From Myxococcota bacterium (GTDB lineage: Bacteria; Myxococcota_A; Polyangia; HGW-17), in assembly GCA_018817795.1 (NCBI GenBank), contig JAHITJ010000152.1, positions 19,695 through 83,694 on the forward strand: a stretch of DNA of 64,000 nucleotides, written 5' to 3'. The position numbers and the translations under genes were made by a program. This document shows, piece after piece, positions 44,951-54,013 of this stretch. The notes under the pieces are model-generated. The model did no database searches, had not been told where the DNA came from, and saw only the letters and a program-made list of their open reading frames with translations. Numbering within the stretch: position 1 is the first letter of the stretch; each line of letters starts with the position of its first letter.

Positions 44951-45892
44951 TCATTTTGCCTTCTTTTTCCAGTTTTCAACAACCTCCGCCGCGTGGATTG
45001 CGGCGATGGTGCCGTCGGAGACCGCCGTGGTGATCTGCCGGTAGGGTTTGGCGCGGGCGTCACCGGCGGCGTAGACGCCCGGCAGATTCGTGCGCATCCG
45101 TTCGTCGGTCAGGATCTCGCCGCGATCCGAGAGCTCCACCTGCCCGGACAGGAACACGGTGCGCGGCACGTAGCCGATGAAAATGAACGTGCCCGTCACC
45201 GGGACGCGGACCGTCTTTCCGGTGACCTTGTGAATGCTCGTGACGGCGGCGAGCCTCTCATCCCCCTCGAAGTCCGTGACCATCTGCTCCATCAGGAACC
45301 GGATCTTCGGATTGGTGCGGGCCTGCTCGACAGCCCACGGGTGCGCCTGGAAGTGATCAAACTCGTGCAGGATCGTCACCGAGGAAGCATATTTCGTCAG
45401 CGATACGGCCTCCTCGAGGGCGGAGTTGCCGCCGCCGATCACCGCGATGTCCTGCCCGGCGAAGAAGTCGCCGTCGCAGGTCGCGCAGTACGAGATGCCG
45501 CGTCCCATGAAGCGGCGCTCCGAATCCAGGCCCAGGGTGCGGGGCGACCCGCCCGGGGCCAGGATCACCACCGGCGCTGAGAAAACACCTTCGTCCTCGA
45601 CCTCCACCAGCTTGAGTTCACTTTTGAGATCCAGCCCCAGGAGATCCACCTGTGAGATCACTCGGGCACCGAAGCTCTCGGCCTGCGAGCGCATGATCCG
45701 GCCCAGCTCCGCACCGGAGGTGACAAGAACACCGGGGTAGTTGGCCACCTCATGAGACAGGTTCATCTGGCCGCCGGGGGTGCCCGTGTCGAGCACCAGC
45801 GTCGACAGCCTCGCACGGGCCAGGTAGATCGCTGCGGTCAGCCCCGCGGGGCCTCCGCCGAGGACGATGGCATCATAGGGATGTGTTTCCAT
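44951..45892 (-). CDS. trxB: thioredoxin-disulfide reductase
   Basis: 313 aa with FAD motif GGGPAGLTAA, the redox-active CATCDG, and NADPH motif GGGNSALEEA. Confidence 0.95.
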   Translation of the reverse strand: METHPYDAIVLGGGPAGLTAAIYLARARLSTLVLDTGTPGGQMNLSHEVANYPGVLVTSGAELGRIMRSQAESFGARVISQVDLLGLDLKSELKLVEVEDEGVFSAPVVILAPGGSPRTLGLDSERRFMGRGISYCATCDGDFFAGQDIAVIGGGNSALEEAVSLTKYASSVTILHEFDHFQAHPWAVEQARTNPKIRFLMEQMVTDFEGDERLAAVTSIHKVTGKTVRVPVTGTFIFIGYVPRTVFLSGQVELSDRGEILTDERMRTNLPGVYAAGDARAKPYRQITTAVSDGTIAAIHAAEVVENWKKKAK

Positions 45893-45981
45893 GGAAGTAG
45901 CTCCCGGCGCCCTTTGGGGACGCCTCCTGGGCTGACGCCGGCTGAACCGGCGGGCGCCCTTTTACGGGCACAATACAGCAT

Positions 45982-46326
45982 CTACTTCAGTTTCGCATCC
46001 AGGATTTCCTTCACCTGCTGCTTGTTCTGGATGCTGCTGGTGGCCGCTGCGACCTTTCCGTCGCGGAAGTACACGGTGAACGGCAGTCCCTGGAACGAGC
46101 GCGTCTCGGGCAGGCGGCGGATCGTCTCGGCGGCCACCGGCGCGTCGAACTCCATGTCCATGAACTCCACGTCGGGGTACTTGGTCTTCAGGGAGTCCAT
46201 CACGTCGTAGACCGGAATGCACATCGGTCCCATGCGCCCGCACACCACGGCGATCTTCTTGCCGCTGGACAGGAGCTCCTGATACTGTTGGGTCGATTCG
46301 ATATGGTTGAGTTTCGTATGCAGCAT
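45982..46326 (-). CDS. thioredoxin-fold protein with atypical C-x6-C active-site region
   Basis: The C-terminal half aligns by eye with E. coli TrxA: GLPFTVYFRDGKVAAATSSIQNKQQVKEILDAKL against [34 protein letters not shown]. In place of WCGPC it has VVCGRMGPMC. I prefer the start at 46326 (MLHTK, AAGGAAG upstream). The ORF track starts at GTG 46359, overlapping the groES-like stop. Confidence 0.8.
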   Translation of the reverse strand: MLHTKLNHIESTQQYQELLSSGKKIAVVCGRMGPMCIPVYDVMDSLKTKYPDVEFMDMEFDAPVAAETIRRLPETRSFQGLPFTVYFRDGKVAAATSSIQNKQQVKEILDAKLK

Positions 46327-46355
46327 GATCTTTCTTCCTTTCATTTCTGATCGTT

Positions 46356-46643
46356 TCACGCTTCAGGGATCGCGTCGGCCTGCACCCACTTGGCCTGCAG
46401 GTCGCCCACGGCGACGAAGCGCAGTTTTTCCTGGTTCCATTCGATCTCGGTGCCCGCGTACTTCTTGTAAATCACACGATCTCCGGGCGCGAGGTCAAGG
46501 TCGGTCAGCAGCGGCGAGATGGCCACCACCTCACCGGTGTCGGGCAGCTCCAGCATCGACTCCGGCAGCAGGAGTCCTCCTGCGGGGGGTTCCTGCCGCA
46601 CAGGTCGCAGCAGCACGGTCTCGTTCAACGGGATGATCTTCAT
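46356..46643 (-). CDS. GroES/Cpn10-like co-chaperonin (no groEL adjacent)
   Basis: 95 aa. MKIIPLNETVLLRPVRQEPPAGGLLLPES...TGEVVAIS...LAPGDRVIYKKYAGTEIEW...LRFVAVGDLQAKW aligns along its whole length with GroES (IRPLHDRVIVKR...SAGGIVL...RGEVLAVG...VKVGDIVIF...). Confidence 0.75.
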   Translation of the reverse strand: MKIIPLNETVLLRPVRQEPPAGGLLLPESMLELPDTGEVVAISPLLTDLDLAPGDRVIYKKYAGTEIEWNQEKLRFVAVGDLQAKWVQADAIPEA

Positions 46644-46670
46644 GTCGTTTCTCCTTAGCCCGCGGTTGTT

Positions 46671-47303
46671 TCAGTTCATGGCCGAGGCGGCCCCGGAGAG
46701 GCCCAGCAGCCGGTCGATCTTCGCCTTGTCGAAGCCCACGACGTAGGAGCCGTTGATGTCCAGTTGGGGCACACCCTGCTGGCCCGTGCGCCGCACCAGC
46801 TCCATGGCCGCCCGCTGGTCGCGACCCACGTCGACCTCCTTGAAGGCGACGTTGTTCTGCCGCAGGTAGTTCTTCACGCGCACGCACCATGAGCAACTCT
46901 GGGTCGTGAACACCGTCACCGAGCGGGCAGGGCGCGCTGCCGCCGCTGGCGTTCCTGCCGCCGTGGTCCGGGCTGTCTGCGGAACCGCCGGTCCTCCGGC
47001 GAAGGCGTGTTCGTAGGTCGCGACCGTCGCCGTCCCCACCAGACGCTGCTCGACGCGGCCCTGCCGCACCAGGATCACCGCCGGCACCTCGGCCACCGCA
47101 AAGCGGCCGTGGACATCCCGGGTCTTTCCAACGTCCACCAGATAGGCGGGCCACTGCGGATGCTTTTCACAGAACGCCTTGAACGCGGGCAGGGTGTCTT
47201 TGGCACCCTGTGAAAAATCTCCGAAAAAGCCGAGGATCAGCGGTCCCTTAAGATGATTGGTCTCCGTGACGAGCTGGGAATAGTTTTTGATGATCTGTAT
47301 CAT
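46671..47303 (-). CDS. fusion of a Cys-less thioredoxin-like domain and a glutaredoxin-like (CSWC) domain
   Basis: 210 aa from MIQIIKNY, with GGAGGTG upstream and an ATGA overlap with arsR. The N-terminal Trx fold lacks CxxC (GFFGDFSQGAK). After an Ala/Pro linker, the C-terminal part is VTVFTTQSCSWCVRVKNYL...GVPQLDINGSYVVGFD, a Grx/NrdH/YruB-like domain. Confidence 0.8.
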   Translation of the reverse strand: MIQIIKNYSQLVTETNHLKGPLILGFFGDFSQGAKDTLPAFKAFCEKHPQWPAYLVDVGKTRDVHGRFAVAEVPAVILVRQGRVEQRLVGTATVATYEHAFAGGPAVPQTARTTAAGTPAAAARPARSVTVFTTQSCSWCVRVKNYLRQNNVAFKEVDVGRDQRAAMELVRRTGQQGVPQLDINGSYVVGFDKAKIDRLLGLSGAASAMN

Positions 47304-47668
47304 GACAACACCTCCTTGGATGTTTTCCCGGTCCGGGTCTTCCGGACCGCCAGTTTCGGACAATCACGCAGGTTCGCGACGCCGGCCTCGCTCAAGGCTG
47401 AAAGCGCCGTCAGGGCCGACGCCACCGCCTCCGGGTGGGCGAGCCGGTACTCCCGACAACGGCCCTGGGCCTGGCACACCAGCAGACCGGCGTTTCGCAG
47501 CAGGCCGAGCTGCTTGGAGATCACCGCCTGCTCCAGGCCGGTGGACTGCACCAGATCCCCGACGATGCAGGGACCGGACATCAGCCGCTCCAGGATCCGC
47601 AACCGTGCCACGTTGGAGAAGACGGCGGCGGTCTCTGAGAGTTGATGAAAATCCGGAGTCGTGTGCAT
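47300..47668 (-). CDS. ArsR/SmtB family transcriptional regulator
   Basis: 122 aa. ...AAVFSNVARLRILERLMSGPCIVGDLVQSTGLEQAVISKQLGLLRNAGLLVCQAQGRCREYRL is the winged-HTH of the ArsR family. It carries several Cys (GPC, VCQ, RC, DC). Confidence 0.9.
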   Translation of the reverse strand: MHTTPDFHQLSETAAVFSNVARLRILERLMSGPCIVGDLVQSTGLEQAVISKQLGLLRNAGLLVCQAQGRCREYRLAHPEAVASALTALSALSEAGVANLRDCPKLAVRKTRTGKTSKEVLS

Positions 47669-47689
47669 GGGGCCAACCTTTCAAAGCAT

Positions 47690-47711
47690 CATATATCGAA
47701 CGTGATATATG
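47690..47711. promoter_or_regulatory. perfect 8-6-8 inverted repeat, candidate ArsR-family operator
   Basis: CATATATC-GAACGT-GATATATG lies 22 nt upstream of the arsR-family start codon, in an A/T-rich stretch that must also hold the operon promoter. Confidence 0.55.
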
Positions 47712-47836
47712 TCTACAAAGGTATATATCCACCACTCAGGATGTCAACCCCGTGCCTGCAGATTTTTTTCAAAGAGTGGAAATTCCGGGACACCGGGTGG
47801 CTGCGAACGAGCCGCCGGGGAACGGACTACAGTGAA

Positions 47837-48487
47837 TTACTGGGCGGAGATGACCTCGTCCCAGTGGAGAAAACCATCCATGACGTTCTTGATCATGGCG
47901 TCCGAGGTGTAGGTCGCGCCGGAGATCGCGTCCACGCCGATGGCGGAATAGACGCTGGTGCAGCCCGGGGAACAGTTCTTGTCGTAGCCGGGCAGGAGCG
48001 TGACGTTCTCCATCGGGAGGCCCTTGAACTGCGTGAAGAACGACAGGGGAACATAATACCACCAACTCTCGCGCTGGGTGATCGTCTCGAGGCCCAGGGT
48101 CTCACCGGCTGCCGAGATGCCCGTCAGGGTCCGCACCTCACTGTCGAAGCCCCAGTTGGCGTTGGCCACGCCGTAGCCGATGACCGCCGACTGAGCATCG
48201 CGCACAATATAATAGTCACCGCTGGCACTGGTGGCCACTTCAAAGGAGGCCCCTGGGAATAGTTGGGCCAGGGCCTGGGCCTCGGTCTTGTTTTGGTTGG
48301 CTGGTATAATAGTAATATTATTTGTGTTGTTTATATTATTTATATTATCAATATCATCAACTACATCTATATCATCAGTTTCTATAATATCACTTGTGTT
48401 GTTTATATTATTATTTTCTATTCCCGAATCACACCCGGAAAACATGAAAACCAACGGCAGAATCCAACCCAAAATGGCGCTCTTCAT
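47837..48487 (-). CDS. FMN-binding-domain lipoprotein (flavinylation motif present)
   Basis: 216 aa with lipobox LVFMFSGC, an Asn/Ile/Asp-rich linker, and a C-terminal FMN_bind-type domain with GVDAISGATYTSDAM (Dxx[ST]GA[TS]). Confidence 0.8.
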   Translation of the reverse strand: MKSAILGWILPLVFMFSGCDSGIENNNINNTSDIIETDDIDVVDDIDNINNINNTNNITIIPANQNKTEAQALAQLFPGASFEVATSASGDYYIVRDAQSAVIGYGVANANWGFDSEVRTLTGISAAGETLGLETITQRESWWYYVPLSFFTQFKGLPMENVTLLPGYDKNCSPGCTSVYSAIGVDAISGATYTSDAMIKNVMDGFLHWDEVISAQ

Positions 48488-48735
48488 ATCAATGACTCTC
48501 CCGGAACCCTCGGCGGGCGGGTCCCCGTTTTCGTCGCAAGAATACTTCGAAAGCGGGGAGATGCACGCGAAAAATCACGGGTCTTGCGGATCGGGTTGCT
48601 CCCGGGGTCCCCTGCGTGCTAGTTTGGCCCGCGCACGGCGCGCTCCCGGAGGTCCGGATGAATACTTTCCCGGCTGTGGGCGTATGGACCGTGTCGAACC
48701 GGCTCCCTTGCCGGTCACCTTCCAGGAGTTCTTTC

Positions 48736-49476
48736 ATGCATACGCTGATCTCGCTCGCGTTCCTGTTCCTGCCGCTGACCCAGACGCCGCCGGCGCCCAA
48801 GCCCGCGGTCACCGCACCGGCGCCCAAGCCCGCCGAAGCCGAGGAGGATCTGAAGACCTACAACCTCGCCGATGCAATCTCGGCGATCACCACAACCCAG
48901 AATTATTACAACAAGATCACCACTTTCCAGGCGAAGTTCAAGCAGGTGTTCTCCAAGAAGTTCCACGGAGACCAGCCCGAAGAGAGCGGTGTCATCTACA
49001 TCAAGAAGCCAGGCTTCATGTTATGGGATTACCTGCTGCCCGACAAGAAGATGTTCCTGATCGACGGCAAGAAGGCCTGGATGTACGAGCCTTCCAGCAA
49101 GCAGGCCCTGTGGCGCGACGTCAAGGACAGTTCGCTTCCCACGCCGGTGAAGTTTTTGTGGGGCCAGGGCAAGCTCACCGACGAGTTCCACGTCAAGATC
49201 GTGCCCAACTCCAAGTTCGCCGGCAAGAACCAGAAGGCGCTCAAACTGCTGCCGAAGAAGCGCTCCCCGCACTTCAAACTGGTCATGTTCGTCGTCGACG
49301 TGCAGGGCGCGGTCGTATCAAGCATCGTGTACGATCATGAAGGCAACAAGAACCAGATCAACTTCAGTGATATCACGCTGAACAAGTCCATCGAGGACAA
49401 GAAGTTCACCTTCACGCCGCCCAAGGGGGTCCAGGTCCTCCAGGCCGGCGAGGAGAAACCTTCCGGTTCCAGGTAA
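48736..49476 (+). CDS. LolA-like (outer-membrane lipoprotein carrier family) periplasmic protein
   Basis: 246 aa from MHTLISLAFLFLPL. ...YYNKITTFQAKFKQVFSKK...GVIYIKKPGFMLWDY...LIDGKKAWMYEP... matches the LolA-fold pattern as I remember it. The ORF-track start at 48616 is less likely. Confidence 0.6.
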   Translation: MHTLISLAFLFLPLTQTPPAPKPAVTAPAPKPAEAEEDLKTYNLADAISAITTTQNYYNKITTFQAKFKQVFSKKFHGDQPEESGVIYIKKPGFMLWDYLLPDKKMFLIDGKKAWMYEPSSKQALWRDVKDSSLPTPVKFLWGQGKLTDEFHVKIVPNSKFAGKNQKALKLLPKKRSPHFKLVMFVVDVQGAVVSSIVYDHEGNKNQINFSDITLNKSIEDKKFTFTPPKGVQVLQAGEEKPSGSR

Positions 49477-49603
49477 CCGATCGGTCCAGGCTCATCATCT
49501 TCTTCCATTTTTCAACTTGACGGGACCGCAGCGCTCTTTTACGCTGACTGCGGTTACATGACTTTGCAGTCGAGATCACACCCGGGAAAGGGCTTGAGAA
49601 TAG

Positions 49604-49933
49604 ATGACATCCAGAGACAAGCGCCGTCACAAACGATTCGAACTGGAAGCCTTCGTGGACTACACTGGCAGGGAATTCCTGCTGAACCACCGCATCTACG
49701 ACCTGAGCCTGGGCGGCATGCGGCTGGCCACTTCCGAGCCCGAGCCCCTGGGAACGTCCGTCGATCTGGTGATCACCTTCCCGGATCTCGACGCCGCGAT
49801 CGAGGTCAAGGGGGAGGTGGTGTGGGTCAAGCCCGCGCCCGACAACGAGATGGGAATCAAGTTCAATTCCGTAGGTATGAAGGAGCTCAAGTTGCTCCAG
49901 GAGTACCTGAAGAAAATCGAGGAAAAGAGGTGA
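49604..49933 (+). CDS. PilZ domain protein (c-di-GMP receptor type)
   Basis: 109 aa with both halves of the PilZ c-di-GMP motif: RRHKR (RxxxR) and DLSLGG (DxSxxG). Confidence 0.85.
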   Translation: MTSRDKRRHKRFELEAFVDYTGREFLLNHRIYDLSLGGMRLATSEPEPLGTSVDLVITFPDLDAAIEVKGEVVWVKPAPDNEMGIKFNSVGMKELKLLQEYLKKIEEKR

Positions 49934-49936
49934 TTC

Positions 49937-50500
49937 ATGGCTCTTGAAATGGAACAGATCCTGCGTGACACCACGCTGGAGGCCTCCGACAAGTTGATGA
50001 TCTTCCGTGGCATCGTGCAGATCGCCCAGGCTGACGGGGAGATGGATCCGCGTGAGAAGGAATATCTGCAGCAGGTGGTCAAGGAGTTCTTCCCCGAACA
50101 GGATTTCGGCGGTTTGCTCGCTGAGTACCGGCCCCTGACGGAGGCGGACCTGGGCGGCTTCTCCTCCGAGGAAGCGCGCGCGTGCTACACGGCCTTCCTG
50201 TTCATGATCGCCTACGCCGACGAGGAGTTCTCCGAGTCCGAGCGTACGCTGCTGTCGACGCTGACGACCGGCGTGCTGCCGCCCGAGCGCGTCGACGCCG
50301 TGGCCGCCGGCATCCGGCAGTACCTGTACCGCCGCTCCATCTTCCACTTCGTGCTCAACCAGAACTTCCTGCATCCGGAGTTTGCCCGCGAGATGGCGCG
50401 CCGGTTCGAGGTTCCCGAGGATGCGGCCGTCGCCCTCAACCAGGAAGTCTACAACGCCGTGCTCGTGCTGCACGGGGCACAGCAGAACGCCGAGGCGTAG
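49937..50500 (+). CDS. TerB-like (tellurite-resistance TerB/DjlA N-domain family) protein, tentative
   Basis: 187 aa with two copies of a helical module carrying the ...IAQADGEMDPREKEYL... / ...IAYADEEFSESERTLL... pattern typical of TerB-like domains. It starts 3 nt after the PilZ stop. Confidence 0.5.
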   Translation: MALEMEQILRDTTLEASDKLMIFRGIVQIAQADGEMDPREKEYLQQVVKEFFPEQDFGGLLAEYRPLTEADLGGFSSEEARACYTAFLFMIAYADEEFSESERTLLSTLTTGVLPPERVDAVAAGIRQYLYRRSIFHFVLNQNFLHPEFAREMARRFEVPEDAAVALNQEVYNAVLVLHGAQQNAEA

Positions 50501-51076: not shown

Positions 51077-51760
51077 ATGAACGGAACACATTGCATGGAA
51101 CAGGGCCGCGAGGCCCTCGCAGCCGGAAAGACCAACGAGGCGCGGGTGTGGTTCGAGAAGGCCGCAGCGCTGGAGCCGGAGAACGCCGAAGCCCAGTTGC
51201 AGCATGCCCTGTGCGCGCTGATGACCGGTGATCGCCGCACGTTCGCGGGTATCTACGCCTCCTTCCGTGAGAAGATGGAGACCGAGACCTCCCCCCGGCT
51301 GGTGCGCCTGTGGAACCTCGTGCTGCGCTTCTCGGGCTCCCTGGCGATGGTGGCCACCGCCGTGACGCTCTCGAGCGCGGCCTGCTCCAACGGAACCAAG
51401 GAAGGCACCACCGCGGCCAAGCCCGACGAGGCCCAGCCGATGGTCCCTGTGGCTGGCAACAACACCACCGAGCCGACCCCGCCCGAGGGCGACATGATTG
51501 ATCCAGCGCCCATGGACGACGAGGTCTACTCCAAGCACCGTTACAGCGCCGGCGTGCGCCCGCCCATCGATCTCGAGCCCGAGGCCAAGACCCCGCCCGT
51601 GCCACCGATGTCCAAACCCGGTGACTCCGCGTCCGGCGACACCGATGATGACGACGACGACATGGAAGCCGGGATGAAGCCCACGCCCATGCGTCCTCCC
51701 GCCACCAAGTACGGCGTCCAGATGCGCTACGGTGGCGGCCTTCGCGACACCGATCTGTAA
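51077..51760 (+). CDS. hypothetical bitopic protein: TPR-like N-domain, one TM, Pro/acidic-rich C-terminal region
   Basis: 227 aa with GGAGGA 7 nt upstream of the ATG. N-terminal ...GKTNEARVWFEKAAALEPENAEA... is followed by a hydrophobic LWNLVLRFSGSLAMVATAVTLSSAAC, then a Pro-rich tail with a DDDDDD run and three [KR]-Y-[SG] sites. Confidence 0.6.
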   Translation: MNGTHCMEQGREALAAGKTNEARVWFEKAAALEPENAEAQLQHALCALMTGDRRTFAGIYASFREKMETETSPRLVRLWNLVLRFSGSLAMVATAVTLSSAACSNGTKEGTTAAKPDEAQPMVPVAGNNTTEPTPPEGDMIDPAPMDDEVYSKHRYSAGVRPPIDLEPEAKTPPVPPMSKPGDSASGDTDDDDDDMEAGMKPTPMRPPATKYGVQMRYGGGLRDTDL

Positions 51761-51773
51761 GCCCGCCAGCTCC

Positions 51774-52970
51774 ATGTCCGACAAGCCTCCCGCCCACGAC
51801 GGCATCCGGGTGCGCCGCGACGGCGACGCTTTCCGCTACTTCAAGTCCGGCGGAGAACCTGTGCCGCCAGACGGCGGAGAACCTGTGCCGCCAGACGGCG
51901 GCCAACCCGTGCCGCGCGAGTTCACCTGTCGCCATCCCTACATCCTTGAGCTCGAGATCACCTGGGCGTGCAACCTCGCGTGTCCCCACTGTTATGTCGA
52001 CGCGCCACGCGCCTGCCCCGATGAACTGACGCTGCCCGAGATCCGCACCGTGCTCGCCCAGGCCCGGGCCGCCGGCATGCTCGAACTGTCGCTGACCGGC
52101 GGCGAGGTGTGCTGCCGTCCCGATCTGATGGACGTGATCGCGGCTGGCCAAGAAGCGGGCTTCCCTGTGCGCCTGGTGACCAACGGAACGCTGGTGACGC
52201 AGAAGATCGCCCGCGCCTGGAAAAACGCCGGCATCGAACTGGTCACCGTGAGCCTCGATGGCGTGGATCCCGCCGTGCACGACACGATCCGCGGGCCGGG
52301 CAGTCATGCGAAGACCCTCGCGGGCATCGCCGCGCTCACGGAGGCGGGCCTTTCTGTGAGCCTGATCGCGGCGTTCTCGCGGATCAACTTCGGCCAGCTG
52401 CCCGCGCTCTGGGACTTCGCCCGTTTGCATCGCCTCGGGCTGCAGGCCCAGATGGTCTCGGGCAAGGGCCGCACGCCGCGAGACCTGCTGCTGTCCCCAC
52501 AACAATATTACGAGCTCGGCGAGCAGATCGCCGCGATCTTCGCTGCCCACCCGCACCGGATCGTACCCATGGACGACATGGTCACACCCTCGAATTGCTT
52601 CCCCCTCAACCAGCTGGAACGGACCTGGCAGAAGCGCTGCTCCGGCGGCATTTTGAACCTGTTCGTGCGCGCCAACGGCGACGTGACGCCCTGCTCGGCC
52701 CTGGCGCTGCCCGAAAACGTCGTGGGCAACATCCGCGAGCCCGGCGGTCTGACCATGATCCTCGAAGAGGAGCGCTGCCGGACCAACCTCGAGTGGTGCC
52801 ACGCGAAGAACCTGCATGGCATCTGCGCGGGCTGCCCCCACGCCGACGTCTGTCATGGCGGCTGCCCGGACATCCTGCTGACCCTGTGCCGGGACCGCCA
52901 CGAGAACGAATACTGCTACCACCGCCTCGAGACCCTCGCCATCACCGAGGCCCTGCTGGATCCGACATGA
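51774..52970 (+). CDS. radical SAM/SPASM domain protein 1
   Basis: About 398 aa with CNLACPHC (Cx3Cx2C), LSLTGGE, and a C-terminal SPASM Cys pattern (...CSGG...GDVTPC...CAGCPHADVCHGGC...). The start is uncertain (ATG 51774 or GTG 51732). The N-terminus contains a GGEPVPPD tandem duplication. Confidence 0.85.
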   Translation: MSDKPPAHDGIRVRRDGDAFRYFKSGGEPVPPDGGEPVPPDGGQPVPREFTCRHPYILELEITWACNLACPHCYVDAPRACPDELTLPEIRTVLAQARAAGMLELSLTGGEVCCRPDLMDVIAAGQEAGFPVRLVTNGTLVTQKIARAWKNAGIELVTVSLDGVDPAVHDTIRGPGSHAKTLAGIAALTEAGLSVSLIAAFSRINFGQLPALWDFARLHRLGLQAQMVSGKGRTPRDLLLSPQQYYELGEQIAAIFAAHPHRIVPMDDMVTPSNCFPLNQLERTWQKRCSGGILNLFVRANGDVTPCSALALPENVVGNIREPGGLTMILEEERCRTNLEWCHAKNLHGICAGCPHADVCHGGCPDILLTLCRDRHENEYCYHRLETLAITEALLDPT

Positions 52971-54013
52971 ACCAACTCCAATACGCCGTCTGCGAACTGA
53001 CCAACCGCTGCAACCTGCGTTGCGTCCACTGCGCATCCAACTCCGGCCCGCCGCGCGAGAATGAATACGGCACCGACGACTGGATCCGGATCGTCGGTGA
53101 GCTCGCGGCGCTGGGATGCGAGGAGCTCACGCTCATCGGCGGCGAGCTGCTTCTTCACCCTGGCTGGGAGGACATCGCGCGGGCCGTGAAGGTTCACGGC
53201 ATCCGGCTCGTGCTGATCACCAACGGGATGCTGGTCACCGAGGAGATCCTGCAGAAGTTCATTGCGCTGGATCCCTGGATCATCGGGGTCTCGCTGGACG
53301 GCGCCACGCCTGAAACCGTCAAGGCCATGCGCCGCGTCGACGGCCACGACCGCGTCATGAAGCTGCTGCGCGACCTGGTCGCCGCCGGGCATCCCCGGGT
53401 CAACGCGATCACCACGTTCTGCAAACTGAACTTCCATGAGTTCGAGGCCCTGGCGGATCGTTTCCGCGGCTCGAAGATCACCTGGCAGGTGCAGATCGCC
53501 AACCCCTCGGGTGAGCGTTTTTCCGATGACTGGTCCCTCTCGGTCGACGAGTTCGCGCAGTTCTGCGAAAAGGTCACCGAGCACATGGAGCACGATCCGG
53601 ATCTGTGGATCTGCCCGATGGACGACTTCGGATACCACCCGCTGTCGGACCGCCTGTCTCGCTTTCACCGGAAGTTCCCCGGCTGCATGGCCGGCATCTC
53701 GGTGATCGGCCTGCGCTCCGACGGGGCGGTTCTGCCCTGCCTGTCCCTGGGCGAGGACTTCGTCGTGGGAAACCTGCACGATACGACCCTGGCTGAGCTC
53801 TGGGCCGACGACGCCCGCTTCGAGCGCTTCCGCAACAAGCGCAAATATCTCACCGGCGCCTGCGACGCCTGCGCCTTCGCGGACACCTGCCGGGGCGGCT
53901 GCACGGCCATGGCGGCGTCCAACACGGGCGCCTTCGGAGAGAACGCCTACTGCCTGCGCAGCATCGAACAGCAGCGCCTGCTCACAGACCTGCTGACGCT
54001 GGGACAAGAGTAA
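52967..54013 (+). CDS. radical SAM/SPASM domain protein 2 (paralog of the preceding gene)
   Basis: 348 aa with an ATGA overlap with the upstream gene. It has CNLRCVHC at residues 15-22, LTLIGGE, and SPASM CMAG...GAVLPC...CDACAFADTCRGGC. It shares PMDD and other blocks with protein 1. Confidence 0.88.
   Translation: MNQLQYAVCELTNRCNLRCVHCASNSGPPRENEYGTDDWIRIVGELAALGCEELTLIGGELLLHPGWEDIARAVKVHGIRLVLITNGMLVTEEILQKFIALDPWIIGVSLDGATPETVKAMRRVDGHDRVMKLLRDLVAAGHPRVNAITTFCKLNFHEFEALADRFRGSKITWQVQIANPSGERFSDDWSLSVDEFAQFCEKVTEHMEHDPDLWICPMDDFGYHPLSDRLSRFHRKFPGCMAGISVIGLRSDGAVLPCLSLGEDFVVGNLHDTTLAELWADDARFERFRNKRKYLTGACDACAFADTCRGGCTAMAASNTGAFGENAYCLRSIEQQRLLTDLLTLGQE

Follow-up and report, generated by a model that had tools for sequence, protein, structure and literature searches.

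An arsR-led operon of a Myxococcota bacterium combines a Cpn10 homologue with glutaredoxin-, thioredoxin- and thioredoxin reductase-like genes

The DNA considered here, a 64,000-nucleotide stretch of contig JAHITJ010000152.1 from a Myxococcota bacterium (assembly GCA_018817795.1; hereafter the window), carries on its minus strand, at 44951-47715, five closely packed genes downstream of a single promoter-like site. They encode an ArsR/SmtB-family repressor, a fusion protein joining a dead thioredoxin (Trx) domain to a glutaredoxin (Grx)-like domain, a homologue of the co-chaperonin Cpn10 (GroES), an atypical thioredoxin-like protein (TrxL) and a paralogue of thioredoxin reductase (TrxB). Our preferred reading, to which we assign a probability of roughly one half, is that this is an accessory, autoregulated operon for the repair of thiol damage, in which NADH-driven disulfide reduction would be combined with an alternative co-chaperonin. 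Comparative-genomic evidence for such a functional link comes from two independent Cpn10 clades, each locked to a Grx-like gene over three phyla, outside the regulon of the controlling inverted repeat of chaperone expression (CIRCE) and often within a Trx/TrxR operon. Each component of the operon belongs to a known superfamily. The initial annotation of this DNA knew of no described system uniting a Cpn10 homologue with Trx, Grx and TrxB genes, and a search of open-access full text and bioRxiv found no description of one.

The five-gene operon and its distribution

The promoter-like site (47688..47715, minus strand) consists of the -35 element TAGACA, a 16-nt spacer and the -10 element TATGAT, with 10 of 12 positions matching the consensus; two such sites occur in 3.3 kb, against 0.4 expected from shuffled sequences. 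Its spacer is filled by an operator-like inverted repeat, CATATATC-N6-GATATATG (47690..47711), whose 8-nt arms are 100% complementary and which is kept 5' of arsR in five related genomes (our loci L007, L008, L009, L010 and L011). Downstream, all on the minus strand, lie arsR (47300..47668, 122 residues; HTH_5, 35.5 bits), the fusion gene (46671..47303, 210 residues), joined to arsR by an ATGA start-stop overlap, the Cpn10 gene (46356..46643, 95 residues; PF00166) after a 27-nt gap, the TrxL gene (45982..46326, 114 residues, with a C-x6-C motif) and, after a further 89 nt, trxB (44951..45892, 313 residues), which encodes the low-Mr thioredoxin-reductase paralogue. The palindrome, the five genes, their strand, their overlaps and their gap lengths are all present as the initial annotation described them. 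That annotation also called the operon a self-contained, inducible disulfide-reduction module. The anatomy fits this description: the operator lies within the promoter, the repressor has a conserved pair of Cys residues, and two redoxins accompany TrxB. It had left the start of TrxL undecided between a GTG at 46359, which overlaps the Cpn10 stop as GTGA, and an ATG after a 29-nt gap; the latter is correct, since the 19 aligned homologues all start at the ATG, with an MLxTNLxH N-terminus in which M1 and L2 are invariant.

Three terminator-like sites were found against 2.3 expected, none of them within the intergenic gaps of the operon, which is uninformative. Coverage of the operon in a groundwater metatranscriptome run amounts to three short contigs, and no conclusion follows for the stretches between them. 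One of these, of 279 nt, is identical to 46335-46613 and spans most of the Cpn10 gene; it is a weak hint of Cpn10 expression, with DNA carry-over a possible source.

Counterparts of these genes exist elsewhere in the source genome (G000), which is 88% complete. They include two thioredoxins over the TIGR01068 cut-off, a further, HRRD-bearing trxB at a contig end, a second Cpn10 of 90 residues (contig C47, 3896-4156, L001; 80.9 bits) that is not beside groEL, and a groEL standing alone on a 2.4-kb contig (C173, 153-1658, L003). The operon is therefore an extra system and not the only one of the cell, and its GroES-like gene is not the sole groES of the genome; had it been the sole one, with groEL displaced, the initial annotation would have regarded its own interpretation as refuted. 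The usual groES-groEL operon seems to have dissolved in the lineage of the source genus. Eight matches to AhpC/TSA peroxiredoxins were also found in the genome, none on the contig of the operon.

The initial annotation had likewise regarded a lack of co-conservation as decisive, and the five genes do recur together in relatives, in other families and in another phylum. Among 11 non-own loci fetched with Cpn10, six have all five in order, five of them from the same genus (G002-G006) and one from another genus (G012). A further genome, G009, has arsR-fusion-Cpn10 with TrxL-TrxB on another contig, two genomes of another family (G016 and G018) have a stand-alone Grx gene followed by Cpn10, and the two further loci are canonical groES-groEL. 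In a phylum sample of 301 genomes, TrxL was found in 15 (14 non-own), and a TrxB match, in two cases a fragment, lies directly downstream of it at all 14 non-own loci; Cpn10 is also present at four of these, from other Myxococcota families.

A scan of GTDB species genomes extended this distribution. The best 80 TrxL loci, to which the following counts refer, span Myxococcota, Bacteroidota, Ignavibacteria, Chloroflexota, Actinomycetota, Planctomycetota, relatives of Fermentibacteria and one Methanophagales archaeon. TrxB adjoins TrxL in 67 of them, an ArsR-family gene is present in 17 by tblastn (a cluster of ArsR-like open reading frames spans 23), and a Grx-then-Cpn10 pair occurs in 10, namely five Myxococcota, one Longimicrobiales, three Ignavibacteriaceae and one Melioribacteraceae; the Longimicrobiales locus (L049) has the complete five-gene order. 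No other family recurs among the neighbours, and specifically no peroxiredoxin, ars or efflux gene. Reduced arrangements are also seen, such as arsR-TrxL-TrxB in G204 and fusion-TrxL-TrxB in G117 (L023), where the fusion gene directly precedes TrxL and the locus has no Cpn10. The five-gene cluster is thus modular and accessory.

Two Cpn10 clades linked to glutaredoxin genes

Relationships among Cpn10 proteins were examined in a tree of 31 sequences, retained from 47 extracted after 16 were dropped as the same gene fetched twice or as near-identical strains; the root is placed at the midpoint and the groups are splits. The operon-linked Cpn10 sequences, including the Longimicrobiales and Melioribacteraceae members, fall in one split (type A; support 95/89). 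A second split (type B; 96/91), with the signature VGTDEDL, holds the Grx-adjacent Cpn10 proteins of the Myxococcota genomes G016 and G018 and of Ignavibacteria. Canonical GroEL-linked GroES forms a third group (89/86), and the orphans of the source genus, of the C47 kind, a fourth. In the Melioribacteraceae genome G336, canonical, type A and type B genes occur once each, alongside a fourth, more divergent Cpn10 gene.

The Cpn10 of the operon passes PF00166 (55.1 bits against 21.1) and is under every NCBIfam GroES cut-off, its best score being 61.3 against 128 bits for NF011106; other type A members reach 64-70 bits where the cut-offs are 96-136. Type B sequences, at 108 and 103 bits, exceed the NF001531 cut-off of 96. 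The protein resembles canonical GroES in family, in length (about 95 residues) and in its mobile loop, the GroEL-binding element with its hydrophobic triplet: at sequence level, PAGGLLLPES aligns with TAGGIILPDT of GroEL-linked homologues and the triplet is retained. It differs in a shorter roof hairpin and in an extra conserved C-terminal tail, which reads ...VQADAIPEA here and ...LLAKYVEADAIP in the type A consensus. The second Cpn10 of the source genome, on C47, is also short-roofed, and at 92.1 bits it falls short of the NF001531 cut-off (96).

A homologue search with the Cpn10 of the window gave only five matches, and relatives were gathered by genome and metagenome scans. The metagenome scan used a seven-row type A alignment from which the more divergent subgroup of the window itself was left out, and it samples the type A core marked by LLAKYVEADAI. 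Of the 77 loci retrieved, 20 reach 50% identity or more and are type A. Wherever these include upstream DNA (18 loci), Cpn10 is immediately preceded by a fusion or Grx gene; TrxL lies 3' in 11 of the 20 and groEL in none. The remaining 57 loci, with identities of at most 41%, have groEL directly downstream in 47 cases and Grx, TrxL or TrxB in none. The type A loci obtained from genomes agree, with a fusion or Grx gene directly 5' in 14 of 14.

Type B shows a comparable linkage. In a sample of 201 genomes of Bacteroidota/Ignavibacteria, 12 score at least 142.9 bits and all others at most 112.5. Grx is directly upstream in 11 of the 12 high-scoring loci, and TrxL-TrxB lies within 1.5 kb in five of those 11; the twelfth is groEL-linked and without Grx, and so are all 18 of the lower-scoring loci that were examined. 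The arrangement of a stand-alone Cp9-type Grx gene followed by a type B Cpn10 gene can be seen at L016 (5070-5792, G016), L017 (4834-5505, G018) and L222-L232.

The location of groES beside groEL under CIRCE/HrcA control is typical of bacteria, although not universal. With a criterion of at most two mismatches per arm to the consensus, a CIRCE-like element was found upstream of canonical groES in six of six loci from cluster-carrying genomes, all six of which are also groEL-linked. None was found at any Grx-linked Cpn10 locus, in the window, or at the groES and groEL loci of the source genome. A search with a GroEL translation likewise detected no groEL at type A loci or at Grx-linked type B loci. 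Unlike the canonical groES-groEL operon, the type A gene described here therefore has neither a groEL neighbour nor a CIRCE element, and it lies among redox genes under an ArsR-type repressor instead.

In G004, of the same genus as the source (97% complete, groEL present), type A is the only Cpn10 detected, and in G016 and G018, where groEL is also present, the Grx-linked type B is the sole one. Because the mobile loop is kept and no other Cpn10 was detected in these genomes, the sequences favour type A being a real co-chaperonin rather than a client-specific factor, the role that the initial annotation had suggested, with the qualification that metagenome assemblies can miss genes.

Repressor, redoxins, reductase and flanking genes

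The repressor passes the ArsR/SmtB metalloregulator subfamily model NF033788 (59.2 bits against 55). It falls far under the cut-offs of the known sensor models CmtR (36.3 against 150), BigR (25.9 against 155) and TsoR. A pair of Cys residues in the predicted wing, C65-x5-C71 within GLL.C....GRCR.Y.L, is shared by each of the 16 cluster-linked repressor sequences that 22 loci yielded. The classical alpha-3 CxC metal site was not found in most of these sequences; the protein of the window has only the single Cys34, and this residue is confined to four same-genus sequences. A third position, C102, lies in a tail that a 62-nt deletion removes in two near-identical strains (L037 and L006). The wing pair is accordingly the only conserved candidate sensor, as C34 is restricted to four sequences of one genus and the tail with C102 is dispensed with in two strains. 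The deletion corresponds to 47327-47388 in the 3' part of arsR; its length is not a multiple of three, so that residues ~87-106 are lost and the frame of the tail is shifted, while the winged-helix core and the C-x5-C pair are unaffected. Natural variation is one possible cause, an assembly error another.

Thiol switches of the BigR/SqrR type offer the closest parallel, being winged-helix ArsR-family autorepressors of redox- or sulfur-related operons with a conserved Cys pair. Their pair occupies alpha2/alpha5 positions, whereas that of the protein described here is in the beta-wing (C-x5-C, GRCR), and the BigR model is missed by a wide margin.

In the fusion protein, the Pfam Thioredoxin family matches residues 27-113 with 23.2 bits, barely under its cut-off of 23.5, and Glutaredoxin matches residues 149-208 with 64.3 bits. 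The initial annotation had described the Trx domain as Cys-less; the CxxC site is indeed absent, replaced by GDFS, and the domain is not strictly free of Cys, as a lone, non-invariant Cys stands at residue 45. Invariant residues are S31, D57, H65 and P74 in the dead-Trx domain and C137 and C140 in the active site CSWC of the Grx domain. The latter passes the YruB-family model TIGR02196 (92.2 bits against 88.55) and carries VTVFT, in keeping with the N-terminal motif [IV]-x-[ILV]-[YF]-[ST] given for Cp9/YruB-type redoxins in the part of PMC3720550 drawn on here. No match to glutathione synthetase (PF02955) was found in the source genome, at its 88% completeness.

Structure prediction gives both domains a predicted local distance difference test (pLDDT) score above 90 and the Ala/Pro-rich linker at 107-123 a score below 50, with an overall predicted template-modelling score (pTM) of 0.52. 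The N-terminal domain has a thioredoxin fold (template-modelling score, TM, of 0.85-0.89 to yeast thioredoxin), and the Grx domain is nearest to the clostridial-type Grx 7c10 (E 9e-24), followed by BC3987 (3zij, 6e-16). Linker length differs among genomes, and an 18-nt insertion that keeps the reading frame is seen near 46943, within the linker, on contigs from two other metagenome runs; both observations fit a flexible tether between dead Trx and Grx. A packing like that of the AhpF N-terminal domain or of protein disulfide oxidoreductases (PDO) was considered and ruled out by the disordered linker, the pTM of 0.52 and the single thioredoxins that are the best structural matches.

TrxL matches no Pfam family at E values up to 0.01, and NCBIfam gives one weak TrxA match, far under its cut-off. 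A CxxC site of the WCGPC type is not present, and the motif CGRMGPMC (C-x6-C) stands instead. The predicted fold is nevertheless that of thioredoxin (AlphaFold2 pLDDT 91; Foldseek TM 0.77-0.82 to E. coli thioredoxin structures). The family is large, with 4707 homologues in a protein search and, in GTDB species genomes, at least 579 matched stretches out of 600. The loop CGRMGPMC and the N-terminal residues M1, L2, T4, L6 and H8 are invariant in the 19 aligned sequences, as are the extension of the loop to CGRMGPMC-PVY and a GLPF motif in the family alignment.

TrxB remains under the cut-offs of the thioredoxin-reductase model TIGR01292 (316.7 against 343.45 bits), of the AhpF-homologue model TIGR03143 (320.9 against 687.65, over profile positions 5-314 of 555, its N-terminal half) and of the AhpF model TIGR03140 (235.7 against 502.9). 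It matches the Deinococcus radiodurans-type reductase 2q7v with an E value of 2.9e-73. The motifs CATC, GGGNSALEE and GRG...FF (in 'MGRGISYCATCDGDFF') are retained, and VTILHEFDHFQA (HEFDHFQA) takes the place of VxxxHRRDxxRA. In thioredoxin reductases, according to the portion of PMC5627308 used here, CxxC is the redox centre, GGGxxAxE serves pyrophosphate binding, GR/KG and FF serve thioredoxin docking, and VxxxHRRDxxRA binds the 2'-phosphate of NADPH. A motif of the H(E/Q)FDHFQA type occurs in 62 of 64 matched TrxL-linked TrxB sequences, which retain CATC, GGGxxAxE, GRG and FF; the two exceptions are a cut sequence and an archaeal TrxB with HRRD. Since the canonical thioredoxin-docking motifs are kept, a disulfide substrate is implied.

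The 89-nt spacer between TrxL and trxB (45893-45981) contains two copies of a direct repeat, AAAGGGCGCC, and a hairpin, CGCCGG-5 nt-CCGGCG, that is not followed by a T-run. It varies by small indels in related metagenome strains, including a 14-nt deletion, and the hairpin or repeat may be an element of mRNA processing or stability.

Immediately upstream of the operon lies a gene for a predicted FMN_bind lipoprotein with Asn/Ile/Asp-rich repeats (NNINNTNN...; 47837-48487, minus strand), and beyond it a LolA-family gene (48616-49476). The lipoprotein gene falls within G+C-poorer DNA (48001-50000; 0.557, against ~0.62-0.65 for most flanking intervals). Farther away, a radical-SAM/SPASM protein (PF04055 and PF13186) is encoded at 51732-52970 on the plus strand, next to small open reading frames of very high third-position G+C (53194-53925), and together these could be a peptide-maturation locus.

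Proposed function, alternatives and significance

In the mechanism that we propose, the ArsR-family repressor would bind the CATATATC-N6-GATATATG operator in the spacer of its own promoter, and oxidation or modification of the wing C-x5-C pair would release it, allowing transcription of all five genes. TrxB would take electrons from NADH instead of NADPH, as the replaced 2'-phosphate motif suggests, and would pass them to TrxL, with which it is almost always paired in genomes, and probably to the Grx domain of the fusion as well. The redoxins would in turn reduce proteins damaged by disulfide or sulfenate formation, or unlinked peroxiredoxins. The type A Cpn10 would act as an alternative co-chaperonin placed under redox control rather than CIRCE heat-shock control, so that GroEL could refold the reduced, unfolded clients, and the dead-Trx/Grx fusion, which is genetically tied to Cpn10, may serve as its adaptor.

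Several points weigh against this proposal. Cys sites of the ArsR family commonly sense metals or persulfides, not oxidants, and the two Cys and two Met residues of the TrxL loop could, with the invariant His8, form a soft-metal site instead of, or besides, a redox disulfide. The choice of NADH as donor is inferred from the loss of one motif and from analogy. No conserved peroxiredoxin or other client gene was found near TrxL in the best 80 loci, and Cpn10 is optional, being present in only 10 of them. In the same-genus genome G001 the order is arsR-Grx-TrxL-TrxB, with both the dead-Trx domain and Cpn10 missing, and in G007 (97% complete) neither type A Cpn10 nor TrxL was found with these queries. 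GroEL binding by type A is itself not assured, because the protein is under all NCBIfam GroES cut-offs and its roof hairpin is shortened.

The most probable alternative, which we nonetheless hold to be unlikely, treats the type A Cpn10 as a dedicated structural partner of the fusion. The dead Trx would dock on the Cpn10 heptamer, perhaps on its tail, and thereby couple reduction physically to encapsulation, with the Grx site positioned either at the lid of the chaperonin or on a scaffold independent of GroEL. The strict adjacency of the two genes, in 18 of 18 metagenome and 14 of 14 genome loci, speaks for it, as do the pairing of the dead-Trx domain with type A while type B goes with a single-domain Grx, and the joint absence of both elements from G001. 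Also in its favour are the separate split, conserved ...LLAKYVEADAIP tail and short roof of type A, the invariant surface residues S31, D57, H65 and P74 of the dead-Trx domain, and the missing CIRCE element and groEL linkage. A conserved GroEL-binding mobile loop is, however, hard to explain if GroEL is not bound; type A is the sole Cpn10 detected in G004, and in G117 the fusion precedes TrxL directly at a locus with no Cpn10. A complex prediction for fusion and Cpn10 scored 0.06 against a mark of 0.32, which counts neither for nor against binding.

A doubtful but more far-reaching possibility is a 'redox-assisted chaperonin' module, comprising the two independent, short-roofed Cpn10 clades A and B with a Cp9-type Grx, tethered in type A through the dead Trx and the flexible linker. 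The Grx, held at the GroES lid, would reduce non-native disulfides of folding clients bound to or encapsulated by GroEL, with electrons supplied by NADH through TrxB/TrxL and with the wing-Cys ArsR as redox switch.

We consider it quite unlikely that the operon responds to metal(loid)s or soft electrophiles, with ArsR sensing As(III), Cd, Cu(I), Hg or persulfide, TrxL binding or reducing the metal(loid) through CGRMGPMC and His8, and TrxB recycling TrxL. Thioredoxin and TrxR genes do occur in some ars clusters, the repressor passes the metalloregulator model and shows a weak, below-cut-off similarity to CmtR and BigR, and the TrxL loop, His8 and N-terminus are invariant. Yet arsenate reductases, efflux pumps, metallochaperones and other metal-handling families do not recur among the neighbours of the best 80 TrxL loci or in the window flanks, most cluster-linked repressors are without the alpha-3 CxC site, the CmtR and BigR scores are a small fraction of their cut-offs, and the docking motifs of TrxB imply a disulfide substrate. 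Arsenic resistance as the main explanation was ruled out, given that no ars or efflux gene is found among those neighbours or flanks.

Very unlikely, finally, is an ordinary peroxide-scavenging chain, like the Cp34-Cp9-Cp20 system of Clostridium or a split AhpF, with Cpn10 as a co-transcribed passenger: the best TrxB match is the N-terminal half of TIGR03143, the Grx domain is Cp9/YruB-like and eight peroxiredoxin-family genes lie elsewhere in the genome, but no peroxiredoxin lies in or beside the cluster or recurs among the best 80 TrxL loci, the fusion domains are connected through a disordered linker, unlike the packed N-terminal domain of AhpF, and a passenger would not have remained beside Grx in two independent Cpn10 clades and in Myxococcota, Gemmatimonadota and Ignavibacteriota alike.

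The operon has features in common with known redox systems. AhpF consists of an N-terminal double Trx fold, of which only the second is active, fused to a TrxR-like module. The operon resembles it in having one inactive and one active Trx-fold unit with a TrxR-like flavoprotein that matches AhpF-type models strongly; it differs in that the units are separate polypeptides, the two Trx folds are not packed together but connected through a disordered linker of ~25 residues, plain thioredoxins are the best structural matches, and neither the TIGR03143 nor the TIGR03140 cut-off is reached.

In the Cp34/Cp9/Cp20 system of Clostridium pasteurianum, as set out in the parts of PMC3720550 drawn on here, an NADH-dependent TrxR-like reductase, a small Grx-like redoxin and a peroxiredoxin are encoded in one operon, and redoxins of the Cp9/BC3987 type carry electrons from the NADH-dependent reductase to peroxiredoxin. 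On that account, the likeness lies in co-transcribed genes, in a TrxR paralogue that does without the NADPH 2'-phosphate motif, in a Cp9/YruB-type redoxin with C-x-W-C and the [IV]-x-[ILV]-[YF]-[ST] motif (VTVFT here), and in redoxin electrons that come from the reductase and not from glutathione, as would be the case here. By the same description, the present operon differs in having no peroxiredoxin, in an additional, unrelated redoxin, TrxL (CGRMGPMC), as the invariable partner of the reductase, in a Grx fused to a dead Trx, and in including Cpn10 and an ArsR-family repressor within the unit.

Desulfovibrio vulgaris, to judge from the sections of PMC5627308 used here, likewise possesses a second Trx system beside the classical NADPH-dependent one, with the NADH-dependent TR3/Trx3 and with TRi. 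These reductases have lost HRRDxxRA and kept GGGxxAxE, and they work with dedicated atypical thioredoxin partners. Following the same sections, TR3 has lost the GR/KG and FF docking residues that are kept in the TrxB described here, and TRi has TQ/NGK where our family has H(E/Q)FDHFQA; the partner motif CGRMGPMC is also different.

The open-access full-text and bioRxiv search found no description of this gene combination, of two Grx-locked Cpn10 clades, of the CGRMGPMC family with its H(E/Q)FDHFQA reductase, or of an ArsR subgroup with a wing C-x5-C pair; for the string CGRMGPMC itself, the open-access full-text search found no paper. The analysis thus brings forward three uncharacterised objects: a large thioredoxin-fold family, marked by the invariant CGRMGPMC loop and not captured by Pfam or NCBIfam models, a partner TrxB subfamily in which H(E/Q)FDHFQA replaces the NADPH motif, and an ArsR-family subgroup with a conserved pair of wing Cys residues. 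All three are widespread in uncultured genomes from groundwater, sediment and similar environments, whose organisms cope with oxidants in ways that are poorly known. Chaperonin-assisted folding and thiol-disulfide repair are usually treated as separate stress systems of bacteria. The genomic pairing described here, found in three bacterial phyla, suggests a link between the reduction of proteins and their refolding with the help of chaperonins.

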